Source: Verrucomicrobiia bacterium
GTDB taxonomy: Bacteria; Verrucomicrobiota; Verrucomicrobiia; CAIQCK01
Direction: 5' to 3'
Assembly: GCA_041667205.1 (NCBI GenBank)
Contig: JBAYFL010000009.1
Coordinates: forward strand, 106,732 to 170,731
Length of the DNA stretch: 64,000 nt
Below are positions 1,281-45,016 of this stretch, one piece after another. Position 1 is the stretch's first letter; each line of letters begins with the position of its first letter. The notes beneath the pieces were generated by a model. That model saw only the letters and a list, made by a program, of their open reading frames with translations, ran no database searches and was not told the origin of the DNA. The translations under genes were made by a program, and so were the position numbers.

Positions 1281-2993
1281 ATGAATCGCTGTATCCATGT
1301 CTTGTTGTGCTGTTGCGCCGCAATCGCGTGCGGGCATGTTGGCGTTGCGGCGGAAACTCCGAAGCGCGTTGAGGCGGACGTGTGCGTCTATGGCGGAACA
1401 TCAGGCGGCGTCGCGGCCGCGGTGCAGGCGGCGCGGATGGGCAAGCGGGTCGTCATTGCCGAGTCGGGCCGGCATTTGGGTGGGATGACGTCGGGCGGCC
1501 TGAGCGCGGTGGACATCGGCGACCCACGCTCGGTTGGCGGTATCTCGCGGGAGTATTTCACACGGCTCGCGGCGACGGTGGGCGCCAAGCTCGCGTGGGA
1601 CAAGCCGTTCACGAGCAAAGGCGGCGGCCCGGCCACGGGCGGCGCCTACGCCATCGAACCGCACAAGGCGGAGCAGGTCTTCAACGGGATGGCGAAGGAA
1701 GCTGGCGTCACGGTGCACTTCAACGCCCGTCTCGCCTCCGTTACGCATCACGCATTACGCATTACGGAACTCCGCACCGAGGACGGGACTATCTTCCGAG
1801 CCAAGATGTTCATTGACGCCACCTACGAAGGCGACCTGATGGCGAAGGCGGGCGTGAGCTGCACGCTGATGCGCGAGGGCAACGCGAAGTATGGCGAGAC
1901 CTACAACGGCATCCACTACGCCGACAAATACAAGCCGCGCACGAATCACTTGAAGCCCGGCCCGACCGGTCGCGTGCCCGGTGGCCAGGGCGTGTGGGAC
2001 CGCGACCTGCCGCTCGATCCCTACGTCGTGCCGGGCAATCCGAAAAGCGGTCTGTTGCCGCTCGTGCAAGCGGGCAAACGCGGCAAGCCTGGCGAGGCTG
2101 CGCCGGGCGTGCAGGCTTATTGCTTCCGACTTTGCCTGACGACCAACACGGCGAACCGTATTTCTATCGCGCCACCGCCGGATTACGATCCGAAGCGCTA
2201 CGAACTCGTGGCGCGCTTCATCGCTGCCTGTCTCACCATTGGTGACGACATGGACCTGCGCTGGTTCTCGAAACACGATCCGTTGCCAAACGGGAAATGG
2301 GACTTCAACACCGCCACCTTCGGCGGCAATATGCCCGGCGCGAGTTGGGAATGGCCGGAGGCCAGCTACTCCCGCCGCGAGCAGATCGCGAAGGAGCACG
2401 AGAACTATCACCGCGGCCTGTTGCACTTCCTCGCCACCGACCCGCGCGTGCCGGCGAAGGTGCGTGAAGAAATGAAGCGGTATGGTTTGCCGAAGGACGA
2501 GTTTACCGACAACGGAGGCTGGCCGCACCAGATTTACGTGCGCGAGGCACGACGCATGGTCAGCGATCTCGTGATAACCGAGCATCACACGTTTGGCCGG
2601 CAGGTAGCGCCGAACTCCGTCGGCCTCGGTTCCTACGGCACCGACACGCACGAAATCCGCCGCATCGTCAAGGACGGCGTCGTTTGCCGCGAAGGCAAGA
2701 CCGCCACCGGCCGTGACGGCGCGCCGCCGTATCCCATCGGTTACGGCGCCATCGTGCCGCGCGCGAGCGAGTGCGAGAACCTTTTCGTTACCTTCGCACT
2801 CTCCGCGAGCCACACCGCGTTCAGCAGCATCCGCATGGAGCCGGTGTTCATGGTCACAAGCCAAAGCGCGGCGACAGCAGCATGCATGGCTATTGAGGAT
2901 GGCACGACGGCGCAGAAGGTAGACTACGCGAAGTTGCGTGAGCGGTTACTCATGGACAAACAGGTTTTGGAAGGGCAAAACCGGAGGCCATGA
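1281..2993 (+). CDS. FAD-dependent oxidoreductase (FAD_oxidored-type), secreted
   Basis: N-terminal hydrophobic signal followed by a dinucleotide-binding motif VYGGTSGGVAAAVQAARMG..ESGRHLGGMTSGGL. A conserved IDATYEGDLMA block is shared with the next gene. Confidence 0.8.
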   Translation: MNRCIHVLLCCCAAIACGHVGVAAETPKRVEADVCVYGGTSGGVAAAVQAARMGKRVVIAESGRHLGGMTSGGLSAVDIGDPRSVGGISREYFTRLAATVGAKLAWDKPFTSKGGGPATGGAYAIEPHKAEQVFNGMAKEAGVTVHFNARLASVTHHALRITELRTEDGTIFRAKMFIDATYEGDLMAKAGVSCTLMREGNAKYGETYNGIHYADKYKPRTNHLKPGPTGRVPGGQGVWDRDLPLDPYVVPGNPKSGLLPLVQAGKRGKPGEAAPGVQAYCFRLCLTTNTANRISIAPPPDYDPKRYELVARFIAACLTIGDDMDLRWFSKHDPLPNGKWDFNTATFGGNMPGASWEWPEASYSRREQIAKEHENYHRGLLHFLATDPRVPAKVREEMKRYGLPKDEFTDNGGWPHQIYVREARRMVSDLVITEHHTFGRQVAPNSVGLGSYGTDTHEIRRIVKDGVVCREGKTATGRDGAPPYPIGYGAIVPRASECENLFVTFALSASHTAFSSIRMEPVFMVTSQSAATAACMAIEDGTTAQKVDYAKLRERLLMDKQVLEGQNRRP

Positions 2994-4648
2994 GAATCTT
3001 TCGATGGTTAGCCTTTCTGGTTCTTACCTCATTCGTTCATTTCACGACTTGTGCCGCCGAATATGACCTCGTCGTCTATGGTGGCACGTCGGCGGGCGTG
3101 ATTGCCGCGGTGCAGGCGAAGAAGATGGGCAAGTCGGTCATCATCGTCTGCCCGGACAAACATCTCGGCGGACTCTCCAGCGGCGGGCTGGGGTTCACCG
3201 ACACGGGCAACAAGGCCGTCATCGGCGGTCTGTCCCGCGACTTCTATCATCGCGTCTGGAAGCATTACGACACGGCTGCGGCGTGGAAATGGCAGAAGAA
3301 GGCGGAATACGGTAACAAGGGGCAGGGGACGCCCGCCATTGACGGCGAGCAACGGACGATGTGGATTTTTGAGCCGCACGTGGCCGAGCGGGTCTTCGAG
3401 GATTACATCCGCGAGTTCAAGATTCCCGTCCGCCGCAACGAATGGCTCGACCGCGCCAAGGGCGTGAAGAAGGACGGCGCGCGCATCGTTTCGATCACGA
3501 CGCTGGGCCGGAAGACTTACGCGGGGAGGATGTTCATTGACGCCACCTACGAGGGCGACCTGATGGCCGCGGCGGGCGTGGATTATCACGTCGGGCGCGA
3601 GGCGCAGAGCGTTTATGGCGAGCAATGGAACGGTGTGCAGACCGGCGTGCTGCATCACCGGCATCATTTCGGCGCGCTGAAGACTCCCATCAGTCCCTAC
3701 ATTGTGCCGGGCGATCCGAAGAGCGGCGTGCTAGCGCGCATCAGCATCGAGCCACCGGGCGAGTTCGGCGCGGGCGACAAACGCGTGCAGGCCTACTGTT
3801 TCCGCATGTGCCTTACCGACGATCCGCGCAACCGCATCCCTTTCCCGAAGCCGAAGGGCTACAACGCGAAGCAATACGAACTGTTGTTGCGCGTCTTCGC
3901 GGCGGGCTGGCGCGAGACGTTCGAGAAGTTCGACCCGATCCCGAACCACAAGACCGACACGAACAACCACGGGCCGTTCAGCACCGACAACATCGGCCGC
4001 AACTACGATTACCCCGACGCGAGCTACGAGCGCCGGCGCGAGATTCTCCGCGAGCACGAGACCTACCAGAAAGGCTGGCTCTGGTTCATCGCCAACGATC
4101 CGCGCGTGCCGAAGGACGTGCAGGACGCCATGCGCCGATGGGGCCTGCCGAAGGATGAGTTCAAGGACAACGGCGGCTGGTCGCACCAGATCTACGTGCG
4201 CGAAGCGCGCCGGATGATCGGCAGCTACGTGATGACCGAGAACGAGCTGACGAAGAAGCGCCCGACGCCGGAGTCGGTCGGCATGGGCAGCTACACAATA
4301 GACTCGCACAACGTGCAGCGTTACATCATGCCCGAGGGCCACGTGCAGAACGAGGGCGACATCGGCGTCTCCACCAAAGGCCCCTACGAGATCGCCTACG
4401 GCTCGCTCGTGCCGAAGCGCGGCCAAGCCGACAACCTTCTTGTGCCCGTGTGCGTCTCCAGTTCGCACATTGCGTTCGGCAGCATCCGCATGGAACCGGT
4501 GTTCATGATCCTCGGCCAATCCGCCGCGACCGCCGCGTGCATGGCGCTGGATGCCGGCGCGCCGGTGCAGCAGGTGGATTACGCCAAGCTGCGCGAGCGG
4601 CTGCTGAAGGAAGGGCAGGTGCTGGGATGGAAGAAGAGCGAAAAGTAA
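2990..4648 (+). CDS. FAD-dependent oxidoreductase, tandem paralog of 1281-2993
   Basis: ATGA start/stop overlap with the previous gene. VVYGGTSAGVIAAVQAKKMG..HLGGLSSGGLG and colinear blocks (IDATYEGDLMAAAGV, QAYCFRMCLT, GWSHQIYVREARRM, SIRMEPVFM) match the upstream paralog. Confidence 0.8.
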   Translation: MRIFRWLAFLVLTSFVHFTTCAAEYDLVVYGGTSAGVIAAVQAKKMGKSVIIVCPDKHLGGLSSGGLGFTDTGNKAVIGGLSRDFYHRVWKHYDTAAAWKWQKKAEYGNKGQGTPAIDGEQRTMWIFEPHVAERVFEDYIREFKIPVRRNEWLDRAKGVKKDGARIVSITTLGRKTYAGRMFIDATYEGDLMAAAGVDYHVGREAQSVYGEQWNGVQTGVLHHRHHFGALKTPISPYIVPGDPKSGVLARISIEPPGEFGAGDKRVQAYCFRMCLTDDPRNRIPFPKPKGYNAKQYELLLRVFAAGWRETFEKFDPIPNHKTDTNNHGPFSTDNIGRNYDYPDASYERRREILREHETYQKGWLWFIANDPRVPKDVQDAMRRWGLPKDEFKDNGGWSHQIYVREARRMIGSYVMTENELTKKRPTPESVGMGSYTIDSHNVQRYIMPEGHVQNEGDIGVSTKGPYEIAYGSLVPKRGQADNLLVPVCVSSSHIAFGSIRMEPVFMILGQSAATAACMALDAGAPVQQVDYAKLRERLLKEGQVLGWKKSEK

Positions 4649-4702
4649 TCCTCACGCTCCGCATGAGGATCGTCTTTGGAGCCATCACGCGGAGCGTGAT
4701 GA

Positions 4703-6760
4703 CTACTGTAGTTTGAGCGCGCGGAAGAGGTTGTTGTAGTCGTCCGTCCAAAGGAAGAGATTGGGTTGCGGTTTGATCACCTTGCCTCCCTCGCGGATTT
4801 GGGGAGCTGCCAGCAGTGCCTTGTTCGCGGTGACGATGATTTGGTCGGTGTTGTAGAACCACGTTTCCGAATCAGTGTCTTCAGCGTCCACGTCATCGGT
4901 GACCATCACGGCGGTCAGACCGACCTCTGCCGCCAGCGTCGCGACGACGGGGGCGATGTCCACGTAACGGTTGGTCGCCTGGAAGATGAGCGCGCCGCCG
5001 GGCTTCAGGTGTTTGAGGTAGATCGCCATCGCCTCGCGCGTGAGCAAATGCAACGGGATGGCGTCGCCGGAGAACGCATCGAGCGCCAGCACGTCAAACT
5101 GCTGCGACGGCTCGCGTTCGAGACTCAGCCGGCCATCGCCAAGCACCACCTCGGTTTTCGCCGGCCCCTCTGTCAGGAACGTGAACTCCGTGCGGGCCAG
5201 TTCCATCACCTGCGGGTTGATCTCGTAGAACCGGAACTCGTCGCCCTTGCGCGCGTAGGCGATGATCGAGCCTGCGCCGAGTCCGACCACTCCAACCTTG
5301 CGTGGAGCGGTCGGCAGGCTTGTGAACAGCCGCCCAAAGCCGCTCGTCGGTGCAAAGTAGGTGTTGGCCGCGAAGCGCATGTCCATGTCGAGGAACTGTC
5401 CCCCGTGCAGGATCTCGCCGTGCGTTAGTGACCGGAACGATTGTGGCGAGGAGGAATCACTCGTGCGAATGGCACCGTAAAAATTCCGTTTCATCACGCG
5501 CATGCCGGCAATCTGTTCCTGCACTGCCTTGGAGGCTTCGCTCGCCGTCAAACCGATCACCGCCACGCCGAGCGCCAGCGCCCACCAACCGACGCGCCGC
5601 GCAGAGAATGCAATCAACGCCGCGCAGGCCACGAGGCCGATGCTGATCTCGAAGAAACCTCGCAGCAGATACGGCGCGGCAAATCCCACCAGCAGCCCGC
5701 CGAGCGCGCCGCCGATGCTGATCATCAAGTAGAACGTCGTCAGGAACTGCGGCGACGGCTTGCTCCGCGCGAGTTCGCCGTGGCAGCACATGCAGCAGAT
5801 GAACAGCCCGGCGGCGAAAATCGCCACGACCTCTCGCAGGTCCAGAGAACTGGTGTGGTGTGCCATCATCGGCAGCGCCACGGCCACCAGCGGCAGGAAC
5901 ACGATGCGCCGATACCAGCGCGGATGGTCGAAGCAGAAGATGAAGCTTGCCAGGTAGATCGCGAGCGGTGCGATCCAGAGAAACGGCACGGAGGCGACGT
6001 TTTGGCAGAGGTGGTTGGTGACCGCCAGCAGCATGAACGACCCCATCGCGGCTAGCGCCATCCATTCGAGCCGCAGGCCGAGGCTGGGCTTCACGGCCGC
6101 GGGCGGATTGTTCGCAGCTTGCGCAGCCGGCATTGCACTGCCGGAGCGCGCGCCGCTCACGGCGGCCCAGATGCAGAGCACCGCGAACACCACGTAGCAA
6201 GCCGACCAGACGAACGACTGCATGTGCGCGCTCACCCAAGGCTCGATGGTAAACGGATACGCCAGCAGTGCCAGCAGCGACGCGAGATTGGAGAGCGCGA
6301 AGAGCCGGTAGGGCATCGCGTGTTGGTGCCGCCGCGCAAACCACGCCTGCACCAGCGGCGTCGTGGTTGAAAGAAGCAGATACGGCAGCCCGATCGTGAC
6401 AGCAAGCAGGCCGAGGATTTGCCAACTCGGATTCTCCGCGCCGGTCGGCTTCCACGCCGCGCTGGGGATGATCGGCAGCAACAACAGGCTCGCCGCGAGG
6501 AGGCCGACGTGGAGCATCGCCTGCCGCCGGGGCGCAAGCCGGCGAGTCGTCCAGTCGGCGTAGGCATAGCCCGCGAGCAGCGCCATTTGGAAAAACACCA
6601 TGCACGTCGCCCACACCGCCGCCGAGCCGCCGAACCACGGCAGGATTTGTTTGGCAATGATCGGCTGCACGAGGAAAAGCAGGAACGCGCTCAGGAAGAT
6701 CGTTCCGGCGTAGAGCGGCAGCGCGGATGATCGGGGAGGGGCGGCTTCAGCAGTAGTCAC
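4703..6760 (-). CDS. polytopic membrane protein fused to spermidine synthase-like methyltransferase domain
   Basis: GTG start. About 400 aa of hydrophobic helices are followed by VGVVGLGAGSIIAY...FDVLALDAFSGDAIPLHLLTREA...LKPGGALIF, the aminopropyltransferase/SAM-MTase signature. Confidence 0.65.
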   Translation of the reverse strand: MTTAEAAPPRSSALPLYAGTIFLSAFLLFLVQPIIAKQILPWFGGSAAVWATCMVFFQMALLAGYAYADWTTRRLAPRRQAMLHVGLLAASLLLLPIIPSAAWKPTGAENPSWQILGLLAVTIGLPYLLLSTTTPLVQAWFARRHQHAMPYRLFALSNLASLLALLAYPFTIEPWVSAHMQSFVWSACYVVFAVLCIWAAVSGARSGSAMPAAQAANNPPAAVKPSLGLRLEWMALAAMGSFMLLAVTNHLCQNVASVPFLWIAPLAIYLASFIFCFDHPRWYRRIVFLPLVAVALPMMAHHTSSLDLREVVAIFAAGLFICCMCCHGELARSKPSPQFLTTFYLMISIGGALGGLLVGFAAPYLLRGFFEISIGLVACAALIAFSARRVGWWALALGVAVIGLTASEASKAVQEQIAGMRVMKRNFYGAIRTSDSSSPQSFRSLTHGEILHGGQFLDMDMRFAANTYFAPTSGFGRLFTSLPTAPRKVGVVGLGAGSIIAYARKGDEFRFYEINPQVMELARTEFTFLTEGPAKTEVVLGDGRLSLEREPSQQFDVLALDAFSGDAIPLHLLTREAMAIYLKHLKPGGALIFQATNRYVDIAPVVATLAAEVGLTAVMVTDDVDAEDTDSETWFYNTDQIIVTANKALLAAPQIREGGKVIKPQPNLFLWTDDYNNLFRALKLQ

Positions 6761-37476: not shown

Positions 37477-38499
37477 TCAAAACTGTCGCGACCGCAACGC
37501 CATCTCCAACTGCCGAAGATCCTTCGGCAGTTCCGCGGTCCAACTCATGCGTTTGCCGGGATGGGCCGGGTGTTCAAGACTGAGGACTTCGGCGTGCAAC
37601 GCCTGCCGGGGGAATTCAATGGGCGTCCTTGCGCCCTCCCGTCCGCGATAGGCCGGGTTATACATCCGGTCACCGATCAACGGGAGTCCGGCGAAGGCGG
37701 CTTGCACCCGGATTTGATGCTTCCGGCCGGTCTCCAGCCGTAGCCGTAGCTTCGTGACGAACCCTTTGCCGCCGCGGAGCGGATACTCGGCGATGACTTT
37801 GTAGTGCGTGATGGCTTCCTGCGCCCCGGAGTCGGGAGCTTTAGCCACCGTTTCGGACAGGACCTGCTGGCGCAGTTCGTCCTCGCTCAACTTTAGCCAT
37901 TGCCCCCAGGTGCCTTCGGGTGCGCGCGCGCGTCCCTCCACAAAGGCCACGTATTCCCGCTTCATCGTGTGAGCCTTGAGCTGCTCAATGAGGTGGTGGC
38001 GGGCGGGGGGACTTGTCGCAATGCAAAAAACGCCGCTCGTATGCTGGTCGAGGCGGTGAACGGGCAGGGGTTCCAGCTTGCGATAGGCAGGCGGCAATGT
38101 TCTTCCCGCGACGCCGCGGTCCTGCGCTCTTAGTTTCCCCACCAGAAAGTCGGCGAGAATGCTTAGCGCGGAGATATCGCAGTTCGGCGCGGGCACGGAG
38201 ATGAGGCCCGGCCCTTTGTTGACGATGGCGAGCGCGGTGTCCAGAAAGAGCAGCGAAACGCGCGGATGAATCTGCCACCCGGAACCGCAGTCCAACGTGC
38301 TGGCGCGGCGGCCGCCCAGTTCCAGCGTTTCGCCCGGATCCGGGATGACCTGATGCGGTTTGCGGATGATGACGCCGTTCACGCTGACCCGTCCTGCGGC
38401 GATCCATTGCTTGGCGCGGGTCTTTGGCGTGTCGGGAAAACCCCGCAGCAGCCAATTCAACAACGGGGCGGTTTTAGTTTCCGTTATGTTTTCGCTCAT
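37477..38499 (-). CDS. RluA-family pseudouridine synthase with S4 domain
   Basis: S4-like [19 protein letters not shown], catalytic motif [17 protein letters not shown]-terminal GRKHQIRVQ and LHA. Confidence 0.85.
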
Positions 38500-38773
38500 T
38501 AGATGCCTTAGCCGCTTCCCGGCGCCGCTTCATTTCTCCTGCGACGAACATTTCCTCCACCTTCTGGCGCGCCCAGGGATTCTTCCGCAGAAACTTGAGG
38601 CTGGAATTCACGGTCGGCTCGAACATGAAACAGCGGATCGGGATGCGATCCGCCATCCTGCCCCAACCATACCACGCCACCAGTTGCTTGATGATGCTCT
38701 CCAGCGTCACCCCGTGCAAAGGATCGCGCGAAGGCGGACGAGGCGATGGCGGCTGGGAATTCTCAGTGCTCAT
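38474..38773 (-). CDS. DUF2132/VF530-family small protein
   Basis: [60 protein letters not shown] matches my memory of the DUF2132 consensus. ATG 38773 is preferred over TTG 38794. The 3' end overlaps the pseudouridine synthase start by 26 nt. Confidence 0.7.
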
Positions 38774-38790
38774 TTGGAGGCAACAAACAC

Positions 38791-39054
38791 TCAACCGAAA
38801 AGATTATCGAACTCGTTATGTGTGCCTACCCAGACCCAGGTGATGCTGTCGCCGTGACGTTCGCCGATGGCGCGGTATTGCTCGTTGATGCGGACAGACC
38901 AGACGTGGTCGTAACCGCCGAGTTTCTTGAAACGGAGCGAAGGGTGGTCGGGGTTTTGCGCGAAGAGCGCGTAAGCACGACGCGCAGCCTTGCGGTTGGT
39001 TTCGTTCAACCCCGCATAAGCCCGCCAGAAACTCGGCCGCGTGCGCGAGTTCAC
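38791..39054 (-). CDS. RelE/ParE-superfamily type II toxin
   Basis: 87 aa. The GTG start overlaps the antitoxin stop (GTGA). Block [47 protein letters not shown] is typical of this toxin fold. Confidence 0.65.
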
Positions 39055-39269
39055 AGGCGCTTCGGGTCGAGAGGTTCGTCACCCTCGGCGGCGGATTCGC
39101 GAAGGAAACTGTCCAGCTTCGGTCGCGACTGCGGATAGGCAAGCCGGCGCTCCCACGCTTCATCATCCTGACGGGCGAGGAGAAACCGGGCGAAGTCAAC
39201 CACCTCGGACTGCTTGTCCGCCGGCAGGGCTTCGCAAACCCGGATGATTTCCTCGGTGGTTCTGCTCAT
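39051..39269 (-). CDS. antitoxin (DUF2281-like)
   Basis: 72 aa, directly upstream of the toxin and overlapping it. ALPADKQSEVVDFARFLLARQ resembles the DUF2281 antitoxin motif. Confidence 0.55.
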   Translation of the reverse strand: MSRTTEEIIRVCEALPADKQSEVVDFARFLLARQDDEAWERRLAYPQSRPKLDSFLRESAAEGDEPLDPKRL

Positions 39270-39331: not shown

Positions 39332-39730
39332 TCACTTCTCAATGCCGAGCAATTCCACCTCGAAGATCAACGGGCTGTTCGCGGGGATATCCGGGCTGGG
39401 GCTTCGCTCGCCGTAGGCCAGATTGGCCGGGATGAACAACGTCCACTTGTCGCCCACCTTCATCAACTGCAATGCCTCCACCCATCCCTTGATCACGCGA
39501 TTGACCGGGAACGAGATGGATTGGCCGCGCTCGACCGAACTGTCAAAGACCGTCCCGTTCGTCAACGTGCCGTGGTAATGCACCTTCACCGTATCCGTCG
39601 GTTTTGGCGTCGCGCCCGTGCCGGACTTGATGACCTTGTATTGCAGACCGCTGGCGGTGGTCTTCACGCCTTCCTTTTTGGCGTTCTCCACGAGGAAGGC
39701 TTCGGCGGCCAGGATGGATGCTGGTTTCAT
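39332..39730 (-). CDS. FKBP-type peptidyl-prolyl isomerase, no signal peptide
   Basis: ATG at 39730 ([12 protein letters not shown]..). [62 protein letters not shown]. Confidence 0.85.
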
Positions 39731-39831
39731 AGTGTTGTCAGATTGATATGGATGTTGTTTGATGCGCGGAAAATCAGCGGAGTCAGCCGCCCCGGACAGC
39801 TTGTCCGCCGGCAGGGCATTCTCCGTCCCGA

Positions 39832-40326
39832 TCACTTCTCGATGCCGAGCAGTTCCACTTCGAAGAGCAGGATGCTGTTCGGCGGAATCTGCGGGCTGGG
39901 GCTTTGCTCGCCGTAGGCCAGCTTGGCTGGGATGAACAACTTCCACTTGTCGCCCACCTTCATCAGTTGCAGCGCCTCGGTCCATCCCGCGATCACGCCG
40001 CTGACCGGAAACGAGATCGGTTCACCGCGCTCCACCGAACTGTCAAAGACCGTCCCGTTGGTCAACGTGCCGTGGTAATGAACCTTCACCCCGTCCGTCA
40101 GCTTCGGCGTCGCGCCCGTGCCGGACTTGATCACCTTGTATTGCAGGCCGCTGGCCGTCGTCTTCACGCCTTCCTTCTTGGCGTTCTCCGCGAGGAAATC
40201 GCCGCCGGTGGCGAGCTTTGTGTCGGGCGCCGCATCGGATTTCTTTTCCGCAACCGCCGGTTCTTCTTTCACGCCGCAACCTGCGACCAAGCCGAGAGCG
40301 AGTGTCAGGATCAAAATGTGTTTCAT
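39832..40326 (-). CDS. FKBP-type peptidyl-prolyl isomerase, lipoprotein
   Basis: ATG at 40326 gives the lipobox signal [17 protein letters not shown]. The FKBP core is near-identical to the 39332-39730 copy. Confidence 0.85.
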
Positions 40327-40517
40327 AGATTTGTTCGACTGCATTGATTGTTTTTCGGTGCGCGGAGAATCAGCCAAGCCGGCCACAAGGTCAAGCTGGG
40401 AACGCGAGGGCAGATGGCAGCTTCCCTCTTGCCCCTCGCGGACTCCCGCCATACACTCCGCACCACGATATTCACCAACAGCTGGGACTATGCCAACGGC
40501 TTCACCGGACGAACAAA

Positions 40518-42284
40518 ATGAGCACAACGGCAAACTTCAGAGTTGATCCACGGCTTGCTTCGATTCTTGGGGAAAGCTACCGCAGCAGTGAATACGCGCT
40601 GAAGGAACTGATTGATAATGCTTGGGACGCAGAGGCGACTGAAGTTCGCGTCACGCTGCCAATAATTCTATCTGATGATCCAATTACTTTGGAAGACAAC
40701 GGCAGCGGGATGAAGCCAACCGAAGTGCGCAATGAATATCTCAACATCGCCAACCCGCGATGGACCAGGAAAGGCGAAAAGACACCTAACAAACAACGTT
40801 TGGTTAAGGGCAGACGCGGTGTCGGGAAATTTGCCGGTTTGATCTTGGCTTCGCGAATGGATTTGGAAACCACGGCGTTTGGCACCATGACCAGTATCAC
40901 CGTGGACAAGGAACAATTGCTGCATGCAACTAAGGACTTGGAGCAAGTTCAGCTCCCTTTTTCAACGCAGACAGCCAGCTCATCAAAGAGCGGGACAAAG
41001 ATCGTGTTGTCAAAGCTGAACGCAAACCTAAACCTTCCACAGCCAGATCGGTTGAAACAAGTTTTGGCCCAAGACTACGGACGCGAAACCGACTTCGCTA
41101 TTTTTGTCAATGGAGAGCGCGTATTCGCTTTTGATGTGCCGGGCTCAAAATTTGAGTGTGACGTAAAACTGCCCAACGGCCAGACAGCAAAAGCAACTTA
41201 TACAGTCGCCGACAAACCATTACCGGCAAAGCAAGCGGGTGTTGTTCTGCGACAAGGCGGAAAGACGATCGGCAAAGCACACTTTTTCGGTCTGGAAAAT
41301 AAAGATGAGTTGTCCGACCGCCTGCGCCGCAGAATCGTGGGTGAAGTTAATGTGCCTCCAGACACTATTGAATTAACAGCCGCTGGTGGTGACGTAATCG
41401 AGAGCGATAAGTCCTTTGAGCATCTCGTCAATGAACTGAGCAAACAGTTTGAGGGCAGTCTCACCCAGACGCACACGCGTGAGGTAAATCTTGCGAAGGG
41501 ACGATGGAAACAGCAAATGGAGCGTCGCTTGCTGAATGTTCCGGAACATAGGCGAGGCATCATCGAACAAAGGATGAACCGCCTCATTTCGCGTGCGTAT
41601 CAAGAAGGGGAAAAGGAGGAGCGCATCAGCACGCTCGTGGACTTGGTGTTGGATGCATTGGAGCACGACGAGTATTGGACTGTATGCAATGAGCTTCACG
41701 ACACTGACCGTGCCGATGTTATGCACTTGGCGGATGCCCTTTTGGAGTTTGGTCTCTGCGACTTGGCGTTTATGGGGCGGCAAGCTAAGAGTCGTCTCGA
41801 TTTTCTGAAGTCTTTGGATTTGCTAGCTCGCAACCCGGGCACGCTTGAAAAGCAAATGCACAAAGCGATTGAGAAGAATCTCTGGGTCTTCGGTCCGCAA
41901 TACAGCTTGATGTCCAGCAATCAGCAATTGGAAACGATAGCTCAAGAGTGTGGGAAGAAAGTGACACCTGATGCAAGCAACCGAACTCGACCGGATTTGT
42001 TGCTATCTCAAGACGGTTTTCAAAGCCGGCTCTTAGTCGAGTTCAAGCGCCCAGACTATGAAGTGGGGCGTGACGACGAGACGCAGGCAAAGAAATATGC
42101 AGATTGGTTAAAGTCGCGGCTTCAATTGTCCGTTGATATTGTTGTCATAGGCGGAACGACCGACCCGTCGTTATGTGAGGAATACACAGGCAAGAGGACG
42201 CAGTTCAGCAGTTATGCCAAAGTGATTGCTGATGCGCAGGCGGCATTGGATTGGATGCTTACTCAATTGGCTTCTCGGAAATAA
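40518..42284 (+). CDS. GHKL-type ATPase fused to Shedu-like (DUF4263-type) PD-(D/E)xK nuclease domain
   Basis: AT-richer than the flanks. The GHKL N-box is [10 protein letters not shown]1 is EDNGSGM and G2 is [10 protein letters not shown]. The C-terminus reads [13 protein letters not shown]...[26 protein letters not shown]...[11 protein letters not shown] (D...ExK plus Q..Y). ATG 40518 is preferred over the listed start at 40344. Confidence 0.75.
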
Positions 42285-42527: not shown

Positions 42528-42821
42528 CTACCTTATCTCGTAAACAGGCTGCGATGATTTCGAGTATTCGTAGATATACTTTCCACGGATGTCATACTTG
42601 GGCTGGTTGCCGTTGGGGTAGTCGTAAATGATACTCCCTTTGATCTCATAGCTGGCCTGCGCGCCGCTGGGGTAGGCATAGATCAGGTTTCCACGGATTT
42701 CGTATTTCGGCTGTGAGCCGTTGGGAAACGCGTAGATTCGACCTCCGCTGGCCTGGCCTTCAGCCAACAGCGGCAGGACAAGGAGGAGAGACATGAGCAG
42801 GCGGCTGATGAATGTTTTCAT
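42528..42821 (-). CDS. secreted miniprotein of four 18-aa repeats
   Basis: Signal MKTFISRLLMSLLLVLPLLAEGQA followed by GGRIYAFPNGSQPKYEIR / GNLIYAYPSGAQASYEIK / GSIIYDYPNGNQPKYDIR / GKYIYEYSKSSQPVYEIR. AT-richer than the flanks. Confidence 0.6.
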   Translation of the reverse strand: MKTFISRLLMSLLLVLPLLAEGQASGGRIYAFPNGSQPKYEIRGNLIYAYPSGAQASYEIKGSIIYDYPNGNQPKYDIRGKYIYEYSKSSQPVYEIR

Positions 42822-42977: not shown

Positions 42978-43076
42978 AGCGTTGTAGTGGCGGCCGTCTC
43001 GGCCGCAACGCTGAAGTGGTTTACTGGATTGCGCAGACGAAAAGGCGGTCGGCCGAGACGGCCGACTCTACAACGC
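42978..43076. repeat. REPIN-like element downstream of radical SAM gene
   Basis: GCGTTGTAGTGGCGGCCGTCTCGGCCGC ... GGTCGGCCGAGACGGCCGACTCTACAACGC. It has GTAG/CTAC heads and each arm is a hairpin (GGCCGTCTCGGCC, GGCCGAGACGGCC). Confidence 0.65.
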
Positions 43077-43084
43077 GCGCGCTG

Positions 43085-44506
43085 TCAGATCGTGCTGGCG
43101 TCGAACGCGGTCTTCGTGCCCTTGTCCCAGCCGTCCCAGAGGAAGGCGGAGTCCTTGCCATCGGCGATGAGGCGGAGGGCGTAACGGACCTGCTCCTCGT
43201 AGAACTCGCAGAACGCGCCGAGCTGTTTCATGCCGCCGTTCATCTCGTGGGCTTCGGCGGGGCAGGGGGAGCCACAGAAATGGCGGATGGCGCAACGGTC
43301 GCACGGCTCGATGTCTTCCACCTTCCGGCCGGTGACCATCGCGAACGGTTCGGTGGTAAGCACCTGCGGGATGGAGTCCTTGAAGAGGTTGCCGCCCTTG
43401 AATTGGGGCAGGCCAATGAACTCGCTGCACGGGAAGAGATCGCCGTTCGGCGCGACGGCGAAGAAGCAACGGCCGCCGCCGCAGGGAGAGATGTCGCACA
43501 TGAGCCGGCGCGCGGTGGGCGCGATGATGCCGACGAGGATGTTGGCGAAGTTGGCGACGATGAGCTTGCGGCCCGTGCGCTTGTAAAGTTCGTAGGTCCG
43601 GTCGAGCGCGGCGGTGAAGTATTTGGCGGCGTCGGCGTCGCGGGGTTTCACCTTGCGCGAGGAGGGCAGGGTGCAGCGGAGGATGTTCAACATGCACGCC
43701 GGCACCTCCTGCTTGTGGAAGAAGTCCACGATCTTGACGAGATGCCGCATGTTCTCCGTCGTGACGGTGCAGATGACGTTGTAGCCGTGGTAGCCGCGCA
43801 GTTTGTCCATCGCGCGGGTGACGTGTTCGAACGCGCCGCGACCTTCCCATGTCTTGCGCGTGCGGTTGGCGATGGAGGCTTCATGGCCGTCGAGCGAGAG
43901 GCCGATGCCGACGCCGCGAGACGTCAGGAACTCAATCGCGCTGTCGTCGAGGAACGTGGCGTTGGTCTGAACGCCGAAGCGGAAGTCTTTGCCGAACTTC
44001 TCGATGCCGGCGAAGACGGCTTCGCGGGCCAGGAGCGGCTCGGAGCCGTGGAAAACGATCTGCGGCAGACGGCCCTTGGGAACGGTGGTCTTGAAATAGG
44101 CCTTCAACCGCGCGAGCGCGTCGAGCAACTGTGCGGTGGTCATCTGCGGACCGCTGCGGCGCATCGGTTCCGGGATGTAACAGTAGGTGCAGTTGAGGTT
44201 GCAGCGGGCGGTCGGATTGAAATAGACGGCGGAAGGTTTCAGGCCGAAACGAAGCATCCGCATCTCCTCGGCGAACGTCTTGGACTTCTTCCTGTAGGCG
44301 CGGAGCAGGGGACTGTCGTTCAACGCGTCGCCAAGCTGGTCGCGGCGGACCAGCGACCAAAACGCGGTGTCGGGATCCACCAGCGCGACATGGGTCGCGT
44401 GGCCGATCTCGACGGGCTGAATTGTGGGACCGTTGCCCGTGTTGACAAAGCGGCCCCGGGATGGAGCCGCTTTGTCAACAGCCTTGGGAATTCTGTCGTT
44501 CTTCAT
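43085..44506 (-). CDS. radical SAM/SPASM domain peptide-maturase-like enzyme
   Basis: The radical SAM cluster motif is CNLNCTYC. The full SPASM pattern is present: CFFAVAPNGDLFPC, then CDRCAIRHFCGSPC (Cx2Cx5Cx3C), then a later FCEFY. An N-terminal extension of about 95 aa precedes the cluster motif. The ATG at 44506 shares one base with the stop of the upstream small ORF. Confidence 0.85.
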   Translation of the reverse strand: MKNDRIPKAVDKAAPSRGRFVNTGNGPTIQPVEIGHATHVALVDPDTAFWSLVRRDQLGDALNDSPLLRAYRKKSKTFAEEMRMLRFGLKPSAVYFNPTARCNLNCTYCYIPEPMRRSGPQMTTAQLLDALARLKAYFKTTVPKGRLPQIVFHGSEPLLAREAVFAGIEKFGKDFRFGVQTNATFLDDSAIEFLTSRGVGIGLSLDGHEASIANRTRKTWEGRGAFEHVTRAMDKLRGYHGYNVICTVTTENMRHLVKIVDFFHKQEVPACMLNILRCTLPSSRKVKPRDADAAKYFTAALDRTYELYKRTGRKLIVANFANILVGIIAPTARRLMCDISPCGGGRCFFAVAPNGDLFPCSEFIGLPQFKGGNLFKDSIPQVLTTEPFAMVTGRKVEDIEPCDRCAIRHFCGSPCPAEAHEMNGGMKQLGAFCEFYEEQVRYALRLIADGKDSAFLWDGWDKGTKTAFDASTI

Positions 44507-44619
44507 TACTTGGACTTCTTGTCCATCAGGATGTAGTGCGACAGGCCCGTGCCTTCGGCTTGGCAGCACTTCCGGCGGGCGATCACGTTCTTCAGTTGTT
44601 TCTTCGCTACTTTCTTCAT
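44506..44619 (-). CDS. putative 37-aa precursor peptide MKKVAKKQLKNVIARRKCCQAEGTGLSHYILMDKKSK
   Basis: ATG 44619 is preceded by GAAAGGAAC (8-nt spacer after AAGGA). The stop TAA overlaps the radical SAM ATG (TAATG). It has a basic N-terminal half, then a CC pair. It is below the size most gene callers keep. Confidence 0.45.
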   Translation of the reverse strand: MKKVAKKQLKNVIARRKCCQAEGTGLSHYILMDKKSK

Positions 44620-45016
44620 CGTGCGTTCCTTTCGTTGTTCCACTGAAACAAAAAGGCTCCGACAGACCACGCGGGTCCATCGGAACCTTTTTCCATCAGA
44701 TTCCATTTTGTTTCGGCCGTAACAGCAGGTCTTCTGGCTTTCGGATCAACCGCTCGGTCACTGCCTTCCCGTCCTTTTCGGACAGTGGCTGGCTTTTCGC
44801 CCAGTGACCGGCGTCCCCGATTACAGCGGCGGGACCGCCACGGCATCAAACCGTGTTCCGGGATGCTGAACTTCGGGGATGTATTTACCAGCGATGGCGG
44901 GCGGATGGAAGAAAAAACTCATGGGTTCGCGAAAGAGGTTTGCGGAAAAGGATTGTTCCACGCCGGGGTTTCTCCTAGTTTTTGGGCCACTCGTTTTCAT
45001 CGACAGAAAGGAACGC

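Follow-up and report, generated by a model that had tools for sequence, protein, structure and literature searches.

What does a bacterium make when it places a 37-amino acid peptide gene directly in front of, and overlapping with, a radical S-adenosylmethionine (SAM)/SPASM enzyme gene, and puts both behind a cobalamin (vitamin B12) riboswitch? The question is raised by the genes cbpA (peptide) and cbpB (enzyme) in a stretch of 64,000 nucleotides from a Verrucomicrobiia bacterium (contig JBAYFL010000009.1 of assembly GCA_041667205.1), hereafter called the window. An earlier note on this DNA had described the pair as an unannotated candidate system for a peptide that is made on ribosomes and then modified post-translationally (RiPP), and had framed it in terms of sactipeptides, ranthipeptides and triceptides. 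The analysis described here favors a different answer, namely a B12-repressed operon that makes an intracellular, enzyme-modified Cys/His peptide serving corrinoid metabolism. We put the probability of this reading at roughly 0.6.

When the sequence was read directly, both genes were found on the minus strand of the window. All of the elements reported in the earlier note were recovered on that strand, including the 37-amino acid open reading frame (ORF), its ribosome-binding-like site, the TAATG junction, the radical SAM and SPASM motifs and an N-terminal extension of about 95 residues. At the junction, the TAA stop codon of cbpA (44508-44506) and the ATG of cbpB (44506-44504) share the A at position 44506. 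The locus is best explained as a self-contained operon made up of a cobalamin riboswitch, a terminator, cbpA and cbpB. Its features, listed in the direction of transcription, are:

44729-44859, minus strand: aptamer core of a cobalamin (B12) riboswitch, including the B12-box GCCACUG (Rfam RF00174)
44646-44692, minus strand: expression platform, a terminator-like hairpin with a U-tract (RNA folding)
44625-44633, minus strand: Shine-Dalgarno-like site GAAAGGAAC for cbpA, with AGGA 7 nucleotides ahead of the ATG at 44619 (read from the sequence)
44506-44619, minus strand: cbpA, encoding the 37-amino acid precursor peptide MKKVAKKQLKNVIARRKCCQAEGTGLSHYILMDKKSK (NCBIfam TIGR04164)
43085-44506, minus strand: cbpB, encoding the 473-amino acid radical SAM/SPASM enzyme (NCBIfam TIGR04163; Pfam Radical_SAM and SPASM)
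43038-43066, minus strand: possible operon-end terminator, GUCGGCCG-UCU-CGGCCGAC then CGCCUUUUCG (read from the sequence; tentative)

Both proteins were identified by comparison with curated NCBIfam equivalog families, TIGR04163 and TIGR04164, which have cutoffs of 375 and 35 bits, respectively. CbpB matches TIGR04163 (“peptide-modifying radical SAM enzyme CbpB”, rSAM_cobopep) with 715.8 bits (E = 1.6e-215) over positions 2-428 of a model 428 positions long. CbpA matches TIGR04164 (“modified peptide precursor CbpA”, cobo_pep) with 52.7 bits (E = 2e-14) over residues 12-35. Database homologues of the enzyme are already named “peptide-modifying radical SAM enzyme CbpB”, and gene callers had already picked out the cbpA ORF on metagenome contigs in which the identical enzyme is encoded. 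By these scores the window pair is an ordinary member of a curated family that has been defined bioinformatically only, so that its description as an unannotated candidate RiPP pair should be toned down. The “cobo” and “cobopep” in the model names suggest, in our own reading of them, that the curators had noticed the context of cob operons.

To define how widely the pair is kept, a genome scan was performed that returned more than 558 relatives of CbpB, and the best 80 loci, 64-95% identical to the window enzyme, were retained (individual loci are referred to below by L numbers). Taxa were taken from the record titles and carry a dozen or so phylum-level labels. They include Planctomycetota (several classes), Chloroflexota/Dehalococcoidia, Syntrophales/Smithella and other Deltaproteobacteria, Anaeromyxobacteraceae, Kiritimatiellia, Verrucomicrobiota, Lentisphaerae, metagenome-assembled genomes of Bacillota, Nitrospinales, Elusimicrobia, Omnitrophica, Armatimonadia and Alphaproteobacteria, among the last Blastochloris sulfoviridis DSM 729. 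A CbpA peptide is encoded upstream of cbpB on the same strand in all 80 loci. The two genes overlap by 1 nucleotide in 35 loci and by 4 nucleotides in 17 (52 of 80 in total), while a gap of 2 nucleotides separates them in a further 8; judged by these junctions, translational coupling of cbpA and cbpB is conserved. With both proteins above their NCBIfam cutoffs and the pairing invariant, the earlier view that a precursor peptide and a radical SAM/SPASM maturase belong together here proved sound. CbpB remains 65-72% identical across the phylum-level labels, and when 1.8 billion representatives were clustered at 50% identity, the main CbpB family formed one full-length cluster, which is unusually tight for a RiPP maturase. 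In one locus (L070, 2557-3106) cbpA and cbpB are 414 nucleotides apart, and the gap contains a match to the Acido-Lenti-1 small RNA (RF01687, 46.2 bits) at 2920-2964 on the opposite strand.

The peptide itself is conserved in a defined region. CbpA begins with a variable Lys-rich N-terminus, followed by a conserved VIAxRK segment, the core C19-x3-G-T-G-L-S-H28-Y-I-L and a Lys-rich tail. Numbering from the conserved Cys as position 0, seven residues are invariant in 81 CbpA sequences (R-3, C0, G+4, G+6, L+7, S+8 and H+9), and all seven are present in the window peptide. Near-invariant positions are V/I-7, I-6, A-5, K-2, A+2, T+5, Y/F+10, I+11, L+12, K+16 and K+18. The family motif around the Cys reads R-K-x-C-x-A-x-G-T-G-L-S-H-Y-I-L; the window core starts at R16-K-x-C19 and includes G23.

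The earlier note had proposed to ask whether a short ORF with a conserved Cys-Cys motif is always found upstream of homologous enzymes. The ORF part holds, as described above, while the Cys-Cys part does not. The invariant Cys is C19, the second Cys of the window “CC”, and the preceding position (-1) is S, G, K, A or T in 77 of 79 informative sequences; only the window and L001 have Cys there. Since position -1 varies outside these two loci, “CC” is not a feature of the CbpA family but an accident of lineage. It was ruled out as the conserved core motif, the second Cys alone being invariant.

Comparison of the window with L001, whose enzyme is 95% identical, revealed five nucleotide differences in the 114-nucleotide cbpA ORF, every one of them a synonymous third-position change. 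At the level of sequence, then, the ORF is under purifying selection. The TIGR04164 match, the presence of the peptide in every locus, the exclusively synonymous changes relative to L001 and the frequent stop/start overlap together place the cbpA ORF far beyond chance. In L051 (7792-7989), one upstream ORF holds two tandem CbpA modules (…VIAYRSKCDAKGTGLSHYILPEDKKEVVAFRRKCDSKGTGLSHYILPEDKVKPS), suggesting that a unit of ~25 amino acids contains both the recognition and the modification sites.

The evidence for a link to B12 begins with the leader of cbpA. RF00174 is the sole Rfam match in the window and lies directly upstream of cbpA, with a score of 77.5 bits (gathering threshold 31.5; E = 2.3e-17). 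The alignment covers positions 47-167 of the 189-position model, with GCCACUG and AGCCAG.AGAC aligned, and the full aptamer probably spans ~44700-44900. Between the aptamer and the ribosome-binding site, 20-70 nucleotides ahead of the cbpA start, is a hairpin of ~19 bp (AAAAAGGUUCCGAUGGACC-CGCGU-GGUCUGUCGGAGCCUUUUU then UUUUUGUUU). It folds with a z-score of -2.9, none of 200 shuffled sequences folds equally well, and the hairpin is kept when the whole leader is folded. The structure is clear by folding, though absent from the output of a simple promoter/terminator scan, and it looks like an intrinsic terminator. A terminator-like hairpin in this position points to an OFF switch, in which corrinoid binding would terminate transcription as is typical of cobalamin riboswitches.

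This arrangement recurs across the family. Of 20 loci tested with Rfam, 16 have a riboswitch ahead of cbpA, and an nhmmer profile built from these matches detected one in 68 of 80, located 200-420 nucleotides ahead of cbpB in 67 loci and 831 nucleotides ahead in L070. A strong hairpin followed by a T-run precedes cbpA in 66 of the 68 riboswitch-bearing loci. The 12 loci lacking a nearby riboswitch comprise two incomplete contigs, six loci inside cob operons, one in which the pair follows a gene for a reductive activase of corrinoid proteins (RACo) and three with no visible link.

In order to determine which genes accompany the pair, all ORFs within 7 kb of cbpAB were clustered across the 80 loci. 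The only recurrent neighbors of cbpAB are cobalamin genes, which NCBIfam assigns to CobT, CobQ plus CobD, CobU, CbiB, CobS, CbiF, CbiD, CbiC, a CobC-like phosphatase and the CbiO-type ATPase of an energy-coupling factor (ECF) transporter. At least one cobalamin gene is present within 7 kb in 37 of the 80 loci. In the six riboswitch-less loci mentioned above, cbpAB lies on the same strand within cob operons, in the order cbiC-cbpA-cbpB-cbiX-… or cbiB-cbpA-cbpB, and Syntrophales and Kiritimatiellia loci have the arrangement cbpAB-cobT. L006 (3287-5524) likewise has no riboswitch; there cbpA directly follows the gene for the RACo-type activase (Fer2, RACo_middle, RACo_C_ter and CBS domains). Planctomycete loci typically have a divergent cobC-cobU-cobT-cobS-cobD/Q-cbiB operon with its own riboswitch. 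In eight loci (L002, L004, L012, L020, L023, L034, L035 and L068) a second cobalamin riboswitch, which governs this operon, is found on the opposite strand ~500-700 nucleotides upstream of cbpA, placing two B12 riboswitches back to back in one intergenic region in Planctomycetota.

Deep relatives extend the connection. Full-length enzymes with 38-46% identity to CbpB still exceed the CbpB cutoff (476-495 bits), and one of these loci, L087, is canonical in having both riboswitch and peptide. The peptides of two deep relatives have diverged and fall under the CbpA cutoff (...VISYRLKCAESGNGLSHYIMYGD... and MSVMMCRMECKVDGNGLSHYIIYDEQGELPF), which shrinks the universal core to C-x5-G-L-S-H-[Y/F]. 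The latter sequence is a 31-amino acid peptide from L089 (4864-6675; 38% identity), where a gene for a 2x[4Fe-4S] ferredoxin sits just downstream of the enzyme. L084-L086 (41% identity, 21 contigs) have no separate peptide gene. In these loci a CbpA-like core (...KVTSYRLKCPKTANGLSHFVMYGD...) forms the C-terminal tail of a 374-amino acid Asn-synthetase-like PP-loop enzyme. Within 2911-6033 of these loci, a Lys-rich linker and a Zn-ribbon-like CxxC…CxxC stretch connect the core (…YRLKCPKTANGLSHFVMYGD…) with the enzyme. The fused gene is immediately followed by the CbpB-like gene and then by a gene for a Dph6-like ATP pyrophosphatase, and the trio lies inside a cobT-cobS-cbiB-cobD-...-btuF-btuC-btuD-btuB operon. 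The fusion, being a natural one, argues independently for joint action of the modified motif and the enzymes of corrinoid metabolism.

The same fusion bears on an alternative that we consider improbable, in which CbpA is the scaffold or precursor of a small molecule. Here the core, once crosslinked, would be cut out or would serve as a carrier, as in pyrroloquinoline quinone (PQQ), mycofactocin or pearlin-type pathways, and the end product would be a cofactor or ligand of corrinoid metabolism. In L084 the core is part of an ATP-dependent adenylating enzyme and the Dph6-like ATP pyrophosphatase comes next, which fits such a scheme, as do the extreme cross-phylum conservation of a short core, reminiscent of PqqA and MftA, and the regulation of the pair together with a cofactor pathway. 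However, no peptidase or tailoring enzyme is conserved beside canonical cbpAB in the 80 loci, CbpB scores 59 bits against the MftC model, well short of its cutoff of 265, and the extra enzymes are confined to one deep clade.

We then considered what the enzyme itself reveals. Pfam finds Radical_SAM and SPASM domains in CbpB and nothing else. The radical SAM motif is C102-N-L-N-C106-T-Y-C109, and the SPASM cysteines are C347-x7-G-x4-C360, C402-x2-C405-x5-C411-x3-C415 and C433, with C337/C342 in addition; these cysteines are invariant in 22 homologues, C347 nearly so. CbpB has no B12-binding domain, which would make it a B12-repressed rather than a B12-dependent enzyme. An AlphaFold2 (AF2) model of CbpB (mean predicted local distance difference test score [pLDDT] 75.5, predicted template modeling score [pTM] 0.80) was searched with Foldseek and matched the sactipeptide thioether synthase CteB along its entire length (457-471 columns, E = 2.5e-17) and the core of the anaerobic sulfatase-maturating enzyme (anSME; E = 3e-17). 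ChlB, TigE, SuiB and SkfB follow these two among the PDB fold matches. A search with a family profile ranked CteB (102.9 bits) just above anSME (101.1 bits).

The N-terminal extension places ~95-100 amino acids ahead of the cluster motif and is predicted to form a beta3-alpha2 domain (three strands and two helices). In size and place it matches the RiPP recognition element (RRE) of CteB, with CbpB residue 95 aligning to CteB residue 101. When the isolated domain was modeled (AF2, pLDDT 67.6), none of its PDB matches was significant, the best having an E-value of 0.88 and the RRE of TbiB1 an E-value of 1.0. No PqqD match to the domain was found in Pfam, and a profile search gave no alignment to the CteB RRE. 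The idea in the earlier note that the extension could be a peptide-recognition element is plausible, though tentative.

The resemblance to anSME invites the explanation that cbpB encodes an anSME and that the upstream ORF is fortuitous. Indeed, anSME is a top PDB match by both structure and sequence, one source names the homologue P0052 “anaerobic sulfatase-maturating enzyme”, and the C-x-A/P-x-G core of CbpA loosely resembles the sulfatase motif C-x-P/A-x-R. The anSME model TIGR03942, however, gives CbpB only 126.3 bits against a cutoff of 349, compared with 715.8 bits for its own family. Additionally, the peptide accompanies the enzyme in every locus, the N-terminal domain of CbpB is missing from the aligned anSME chain (the alignment starts at anSME residue 12 and CbpB residue 98), and the sulfatase Arg at +4 is replaced by an invariant Gly. 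A sulfatase-like neighbor family, judged by eye, occurs in 4 of 80 loci, and no such gene is found among the 15 window ORFs (34726-54749) scanned against Pfam. The identity of CbpB as an anSME was rejected on HMM score and gene context, and this explanation is effectively refuted, in agreement with the RiPP-type pairing proposed earlier.

A conventional secreted, bioactive RiPP of the sactipeptide, ranthipeptide or triceptide kind, exported and processed by distant genes, is another reading of a precursor peptide next to a radical SAM/SPASM maturase, and the closest characterized relatives of the enzyme, DynA, PapB and CteB, make bioactive or crosslinked RiPPs. We nevertheless regard it as very unlikely. 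The next-best NCBIfam models for CbpB (DynA, PapB, anSME, HxsB, QhpD, AmcB and SCIFF) score ~100-130 bits, well under their cutoffs. Against sactipeptide and ranthipeptide models CbpB reached 129.3 bits for PapB (cutoff 340), 100.4 for SCIFF (425) and 56.6 for StsB (625); against triceptide and cyclophane models it reached 100.6 bits for AmcB (425), 95.9 for YhhB (445), 88.8 for FxsB (370) and 83.9 for GrrM (310). With these models so far below cutoff, CbpB is neither an anSME nor a member of a characterized RiPP class. The neighborhood clustering of 80 loci also returned no recurrent protease, peptidase, exporter or further tailoring family beside cbpAB, so that the lack of an adjacent protease or exporter, correctly noted for the window, is a general trait of the family. 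Since the pair has no such companions and its sequence is nearly frozen across phyla, the product is most likely intracellular, and it is unlikely to be an antibiotic. A peptide near-invariant across a dozen or so phylum-level labels, with a single conserved Cys, a cobalamin riboswitch upstream and cob-operon linkage elsewhere, does not sit well with the sactipeptide, ranthipeptide or triceptide framing of the earlier note.

These observations are consistent with the following course of events for a B12-repressed operon serving corrinoid metabolism. When corrinoid is plentiful, the riboswitch would bind it, the terminator would form and the operon would be off. When corrinoid is scarce, the transcript would read through, and the 37-amino acid CbpA and CbpB would be made in a coupled fashion. 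CbpB would recognize the VIAxRK segment and use a 5'-deoxyadenosyl radical, together with its auxiliary Fe-S clusters, to modify the core C-x3-G-x-G-L-S-H-[Y/F]. From the nearest structural relatives, the likeliest product would carry one crosslink within the peptide that starts at its only invariant Cys and is a thioether like those formed by CteB and PapB; Cys oxidation of the anSME type or a His/Tyr-centered crosslink is also conceivable. The product would stay in the cell as a small Cys/His accessory factor of anaerobic cobamide biosynthesis or salvage, for example as a handler of cobalt or of incomplete corrinoids without a lower ligand.

Several points weigh against this reading. In about half of the loci, the window among them, there is no nearby cob gene and the riboswitch alone provides the B12 link. 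L058, L064 and L073 have no B12 link in the sequence examined, and L089 has neither a riboswitch nor cob neighbors within 5 kb. Thr+5, which we take to be the position equivalent to the acceptor in CteA (a Cys-x4-Thr link), is weakened as a universal crosslink acceptor by its replacement with Asn in deep relatives and with Ala or Ile in five canonical loci. A literature search found no paper or experiment on the chemistry, function or riboswitch control of CbpA/CbpB. The enzymes of the anaerobic cobalamin pathway are regarded as a full set even without a factor of this kind. Lastly, B12-independent substitute enzymes, and transporters too, are among the targets of B12 riboswitches.

The last point opens a further explanation, which we hold to be rather unlikely, that the modified peptide spares B12: under B12 scarcity it would substitute for or regulate a B12-dependent process, as metE and nrdDG do, and would have no part in making corrinoids. 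B12-independent isozymes are known targets of OFF-type B12 riboswitches, and the stand-alone riboswitch units with unrelated neighbors in about half of the loci also speak for such a function. The window locus is of this type, in that no B12 genes were found near cbpAB within the window and the pair forms a stand-alone riboswitch-controlled unit. In contrast, cob operons repeatedly contain cbpAB on the same strand, with cbiC and cbiX on either side or with cbiB ahead of it; the pair also forms units with cobT, and within a cob/btu operon the core is found as part of an enzyme. Moreover, a 37-amino acid peptide is not a plausible stand-in for any known B12-dependent reaction.

To return to a role in corrinoid metabolism, a peptide that handles cobalt or corrinoids is suggested, speculatively, by the invariant Cys and His, by the strongly basic flanks and by the preferential linkage to those steps in which corrinoids without a lower ligand are handled. 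A more specific version, which we offer as tentative and doubtful, is that CbpA/CbpB is an unrecognized, widespread accessory module of anaerobic cobamide biosynthesis or salvage. The crosslink would shape a Cys...G-L-S-His loop, and the peptide would bind cobalt or ligate the cobalt of anionic incomplete corrinoids (cobyric acid, cobinamide), passing them to CbiB, CobU, CobS, CobT or amidating enzymes. Such a module would explain why the pair is under a B12 riboswitch, why it is linked preferentially to nucleotide-loop genes and why, in a cob/btu operon, the core is found naturally joined to an Asn-synthetase-like adenylating enzyme. If it exists, the B12 pathway would gain its first component of ribosomal-peptide origin. 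The family is notable for a frozen sequence across mostly anaerobic groups, a probable shut-off by B12 and its place within cobalamin operons. Should the peptide turn out to act in cobamide metabolism as a cofactor, chaperone or scaffold, one of the most thoroughly studied biosynthetic pathways would gain a new component, and the pair would represent a rare RiPP-type system with housekeeping work.

The neighbors of the pair in the window are unrelated to it and include an SSF symporter, FKBPs, a ParE/antitoxin pair and proteins of the HATPase_c_3 and GH127-like kinds. Positions 42990-43075, past the stop codon of cbpB, contain GC-rich inverted repeats with GGCCGAGACGGCC/GGCCGTCTCGGCC, flanked by CGTTGTAG…CTACAACG, which could be a bidirectional terminator or a repetitive extragenic palindromic (REP)-like element; the hairpin at 43038-43066 was not flagged by a simple terminator scan. 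Just downstream of cbpB, an ORF at 42528-42821 (minus strand), apparently with its own promoter-like site, encodes a small, predicted secreted protein with a signal peptide and four tandem repeats of ~17 amino acids (Y-x-[FY]-P-x-G-x-Q-[PA]-x-Y-[ED]-I-[RK]-G). This protein has no Pfam match and is not kept beside cbpAB in other loci. At 39332-40533 (minus strand) are two tandem paralogous genes for FKBP-type peptidyl-prolyl isomerases, each with FKBP_N and FKBP_C, whose near-alike C-terminal halves indicate a recent duplication. The region 38474-39269 (minus strand) encodes a ParE-like toxin (PF24732, 44 bits) that overlaps an upstream DUF2281-type antitoxin candidate and lies beside a VF530 DNA-binding protein.

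How, then, does the pair compare with systems already described? It agrees with the NCBIfam CbpA/CbpB families (TIGR04163/TIGR04164) in gene order, coupling and core motif. Among characterized enzymes, CteB (CteA; thermocellin) and PapB (PapA) have a similar radical SAM and two-auxiliary-cluster SPASM fold, CteB being the best full-length structural match despite only 18-19% identity, and their substrates have an essential Cys, as does CbpA. Unlike CteB and PapB, the CbpA/CbpB pair combines a housekeeping-like conservation across phyla with B12 regulation and has no export or processing genes. Sactipeptide and ranthipeptide precursors have several thioether-donor Cys residues where CbpA has one conserved Cys, and triceptide precursors have repeated aromatic-X-X motifs, whereas CbpA has a single H-Y-I-L stretch and no repeats. 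The anSMEs (PDB 4K36-4K39) share with CbpB the core fold and all SPASM cysteines. They act on the Cys of a short C-x-A/P-x motif in a sulfatase, while the partner of CbpB is a dedicated 37-amino acid peptide.

PqqA/PqqE and MftA/MftC resemble the pair in a different respect, each having a tiny, highly conserved precursor beside a radical SAM/SPASM enzyme, no exporter, a role inside the cell (probable for CbpA) and a tie to primary or cofactor metabolism. Neither PqqB/C/D/F nor MftB/D/E/F is found beside cbpAB, and the conserved residues differ, being Cys...GLSH in CbpA and Glu/Tyr or a C-terminal Val-Tyr in the PQQ and mycofactocin precursors. The remaining comparison is with the cobalamin riboswitch regulon (RF00174), whose usual members are cob, cbi and btu genes. 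As far as we could find, published surveys of the B12 regulon do not describe a peptide-maturase class under a B12 riboswitch; in a search by term of the riboswitch paper PMC9600662, “radical SAM” appeared in the reference list only and “peptide” did not appear. Like the leaders of that regulon, the cbpAB leader has a canonical aptamer with the B12 box and, ahead of the first gene, an apparent OFF platform of the terminator type. It differs from the usual members in what is regulated: a RiPP-like peptide and its maturase.

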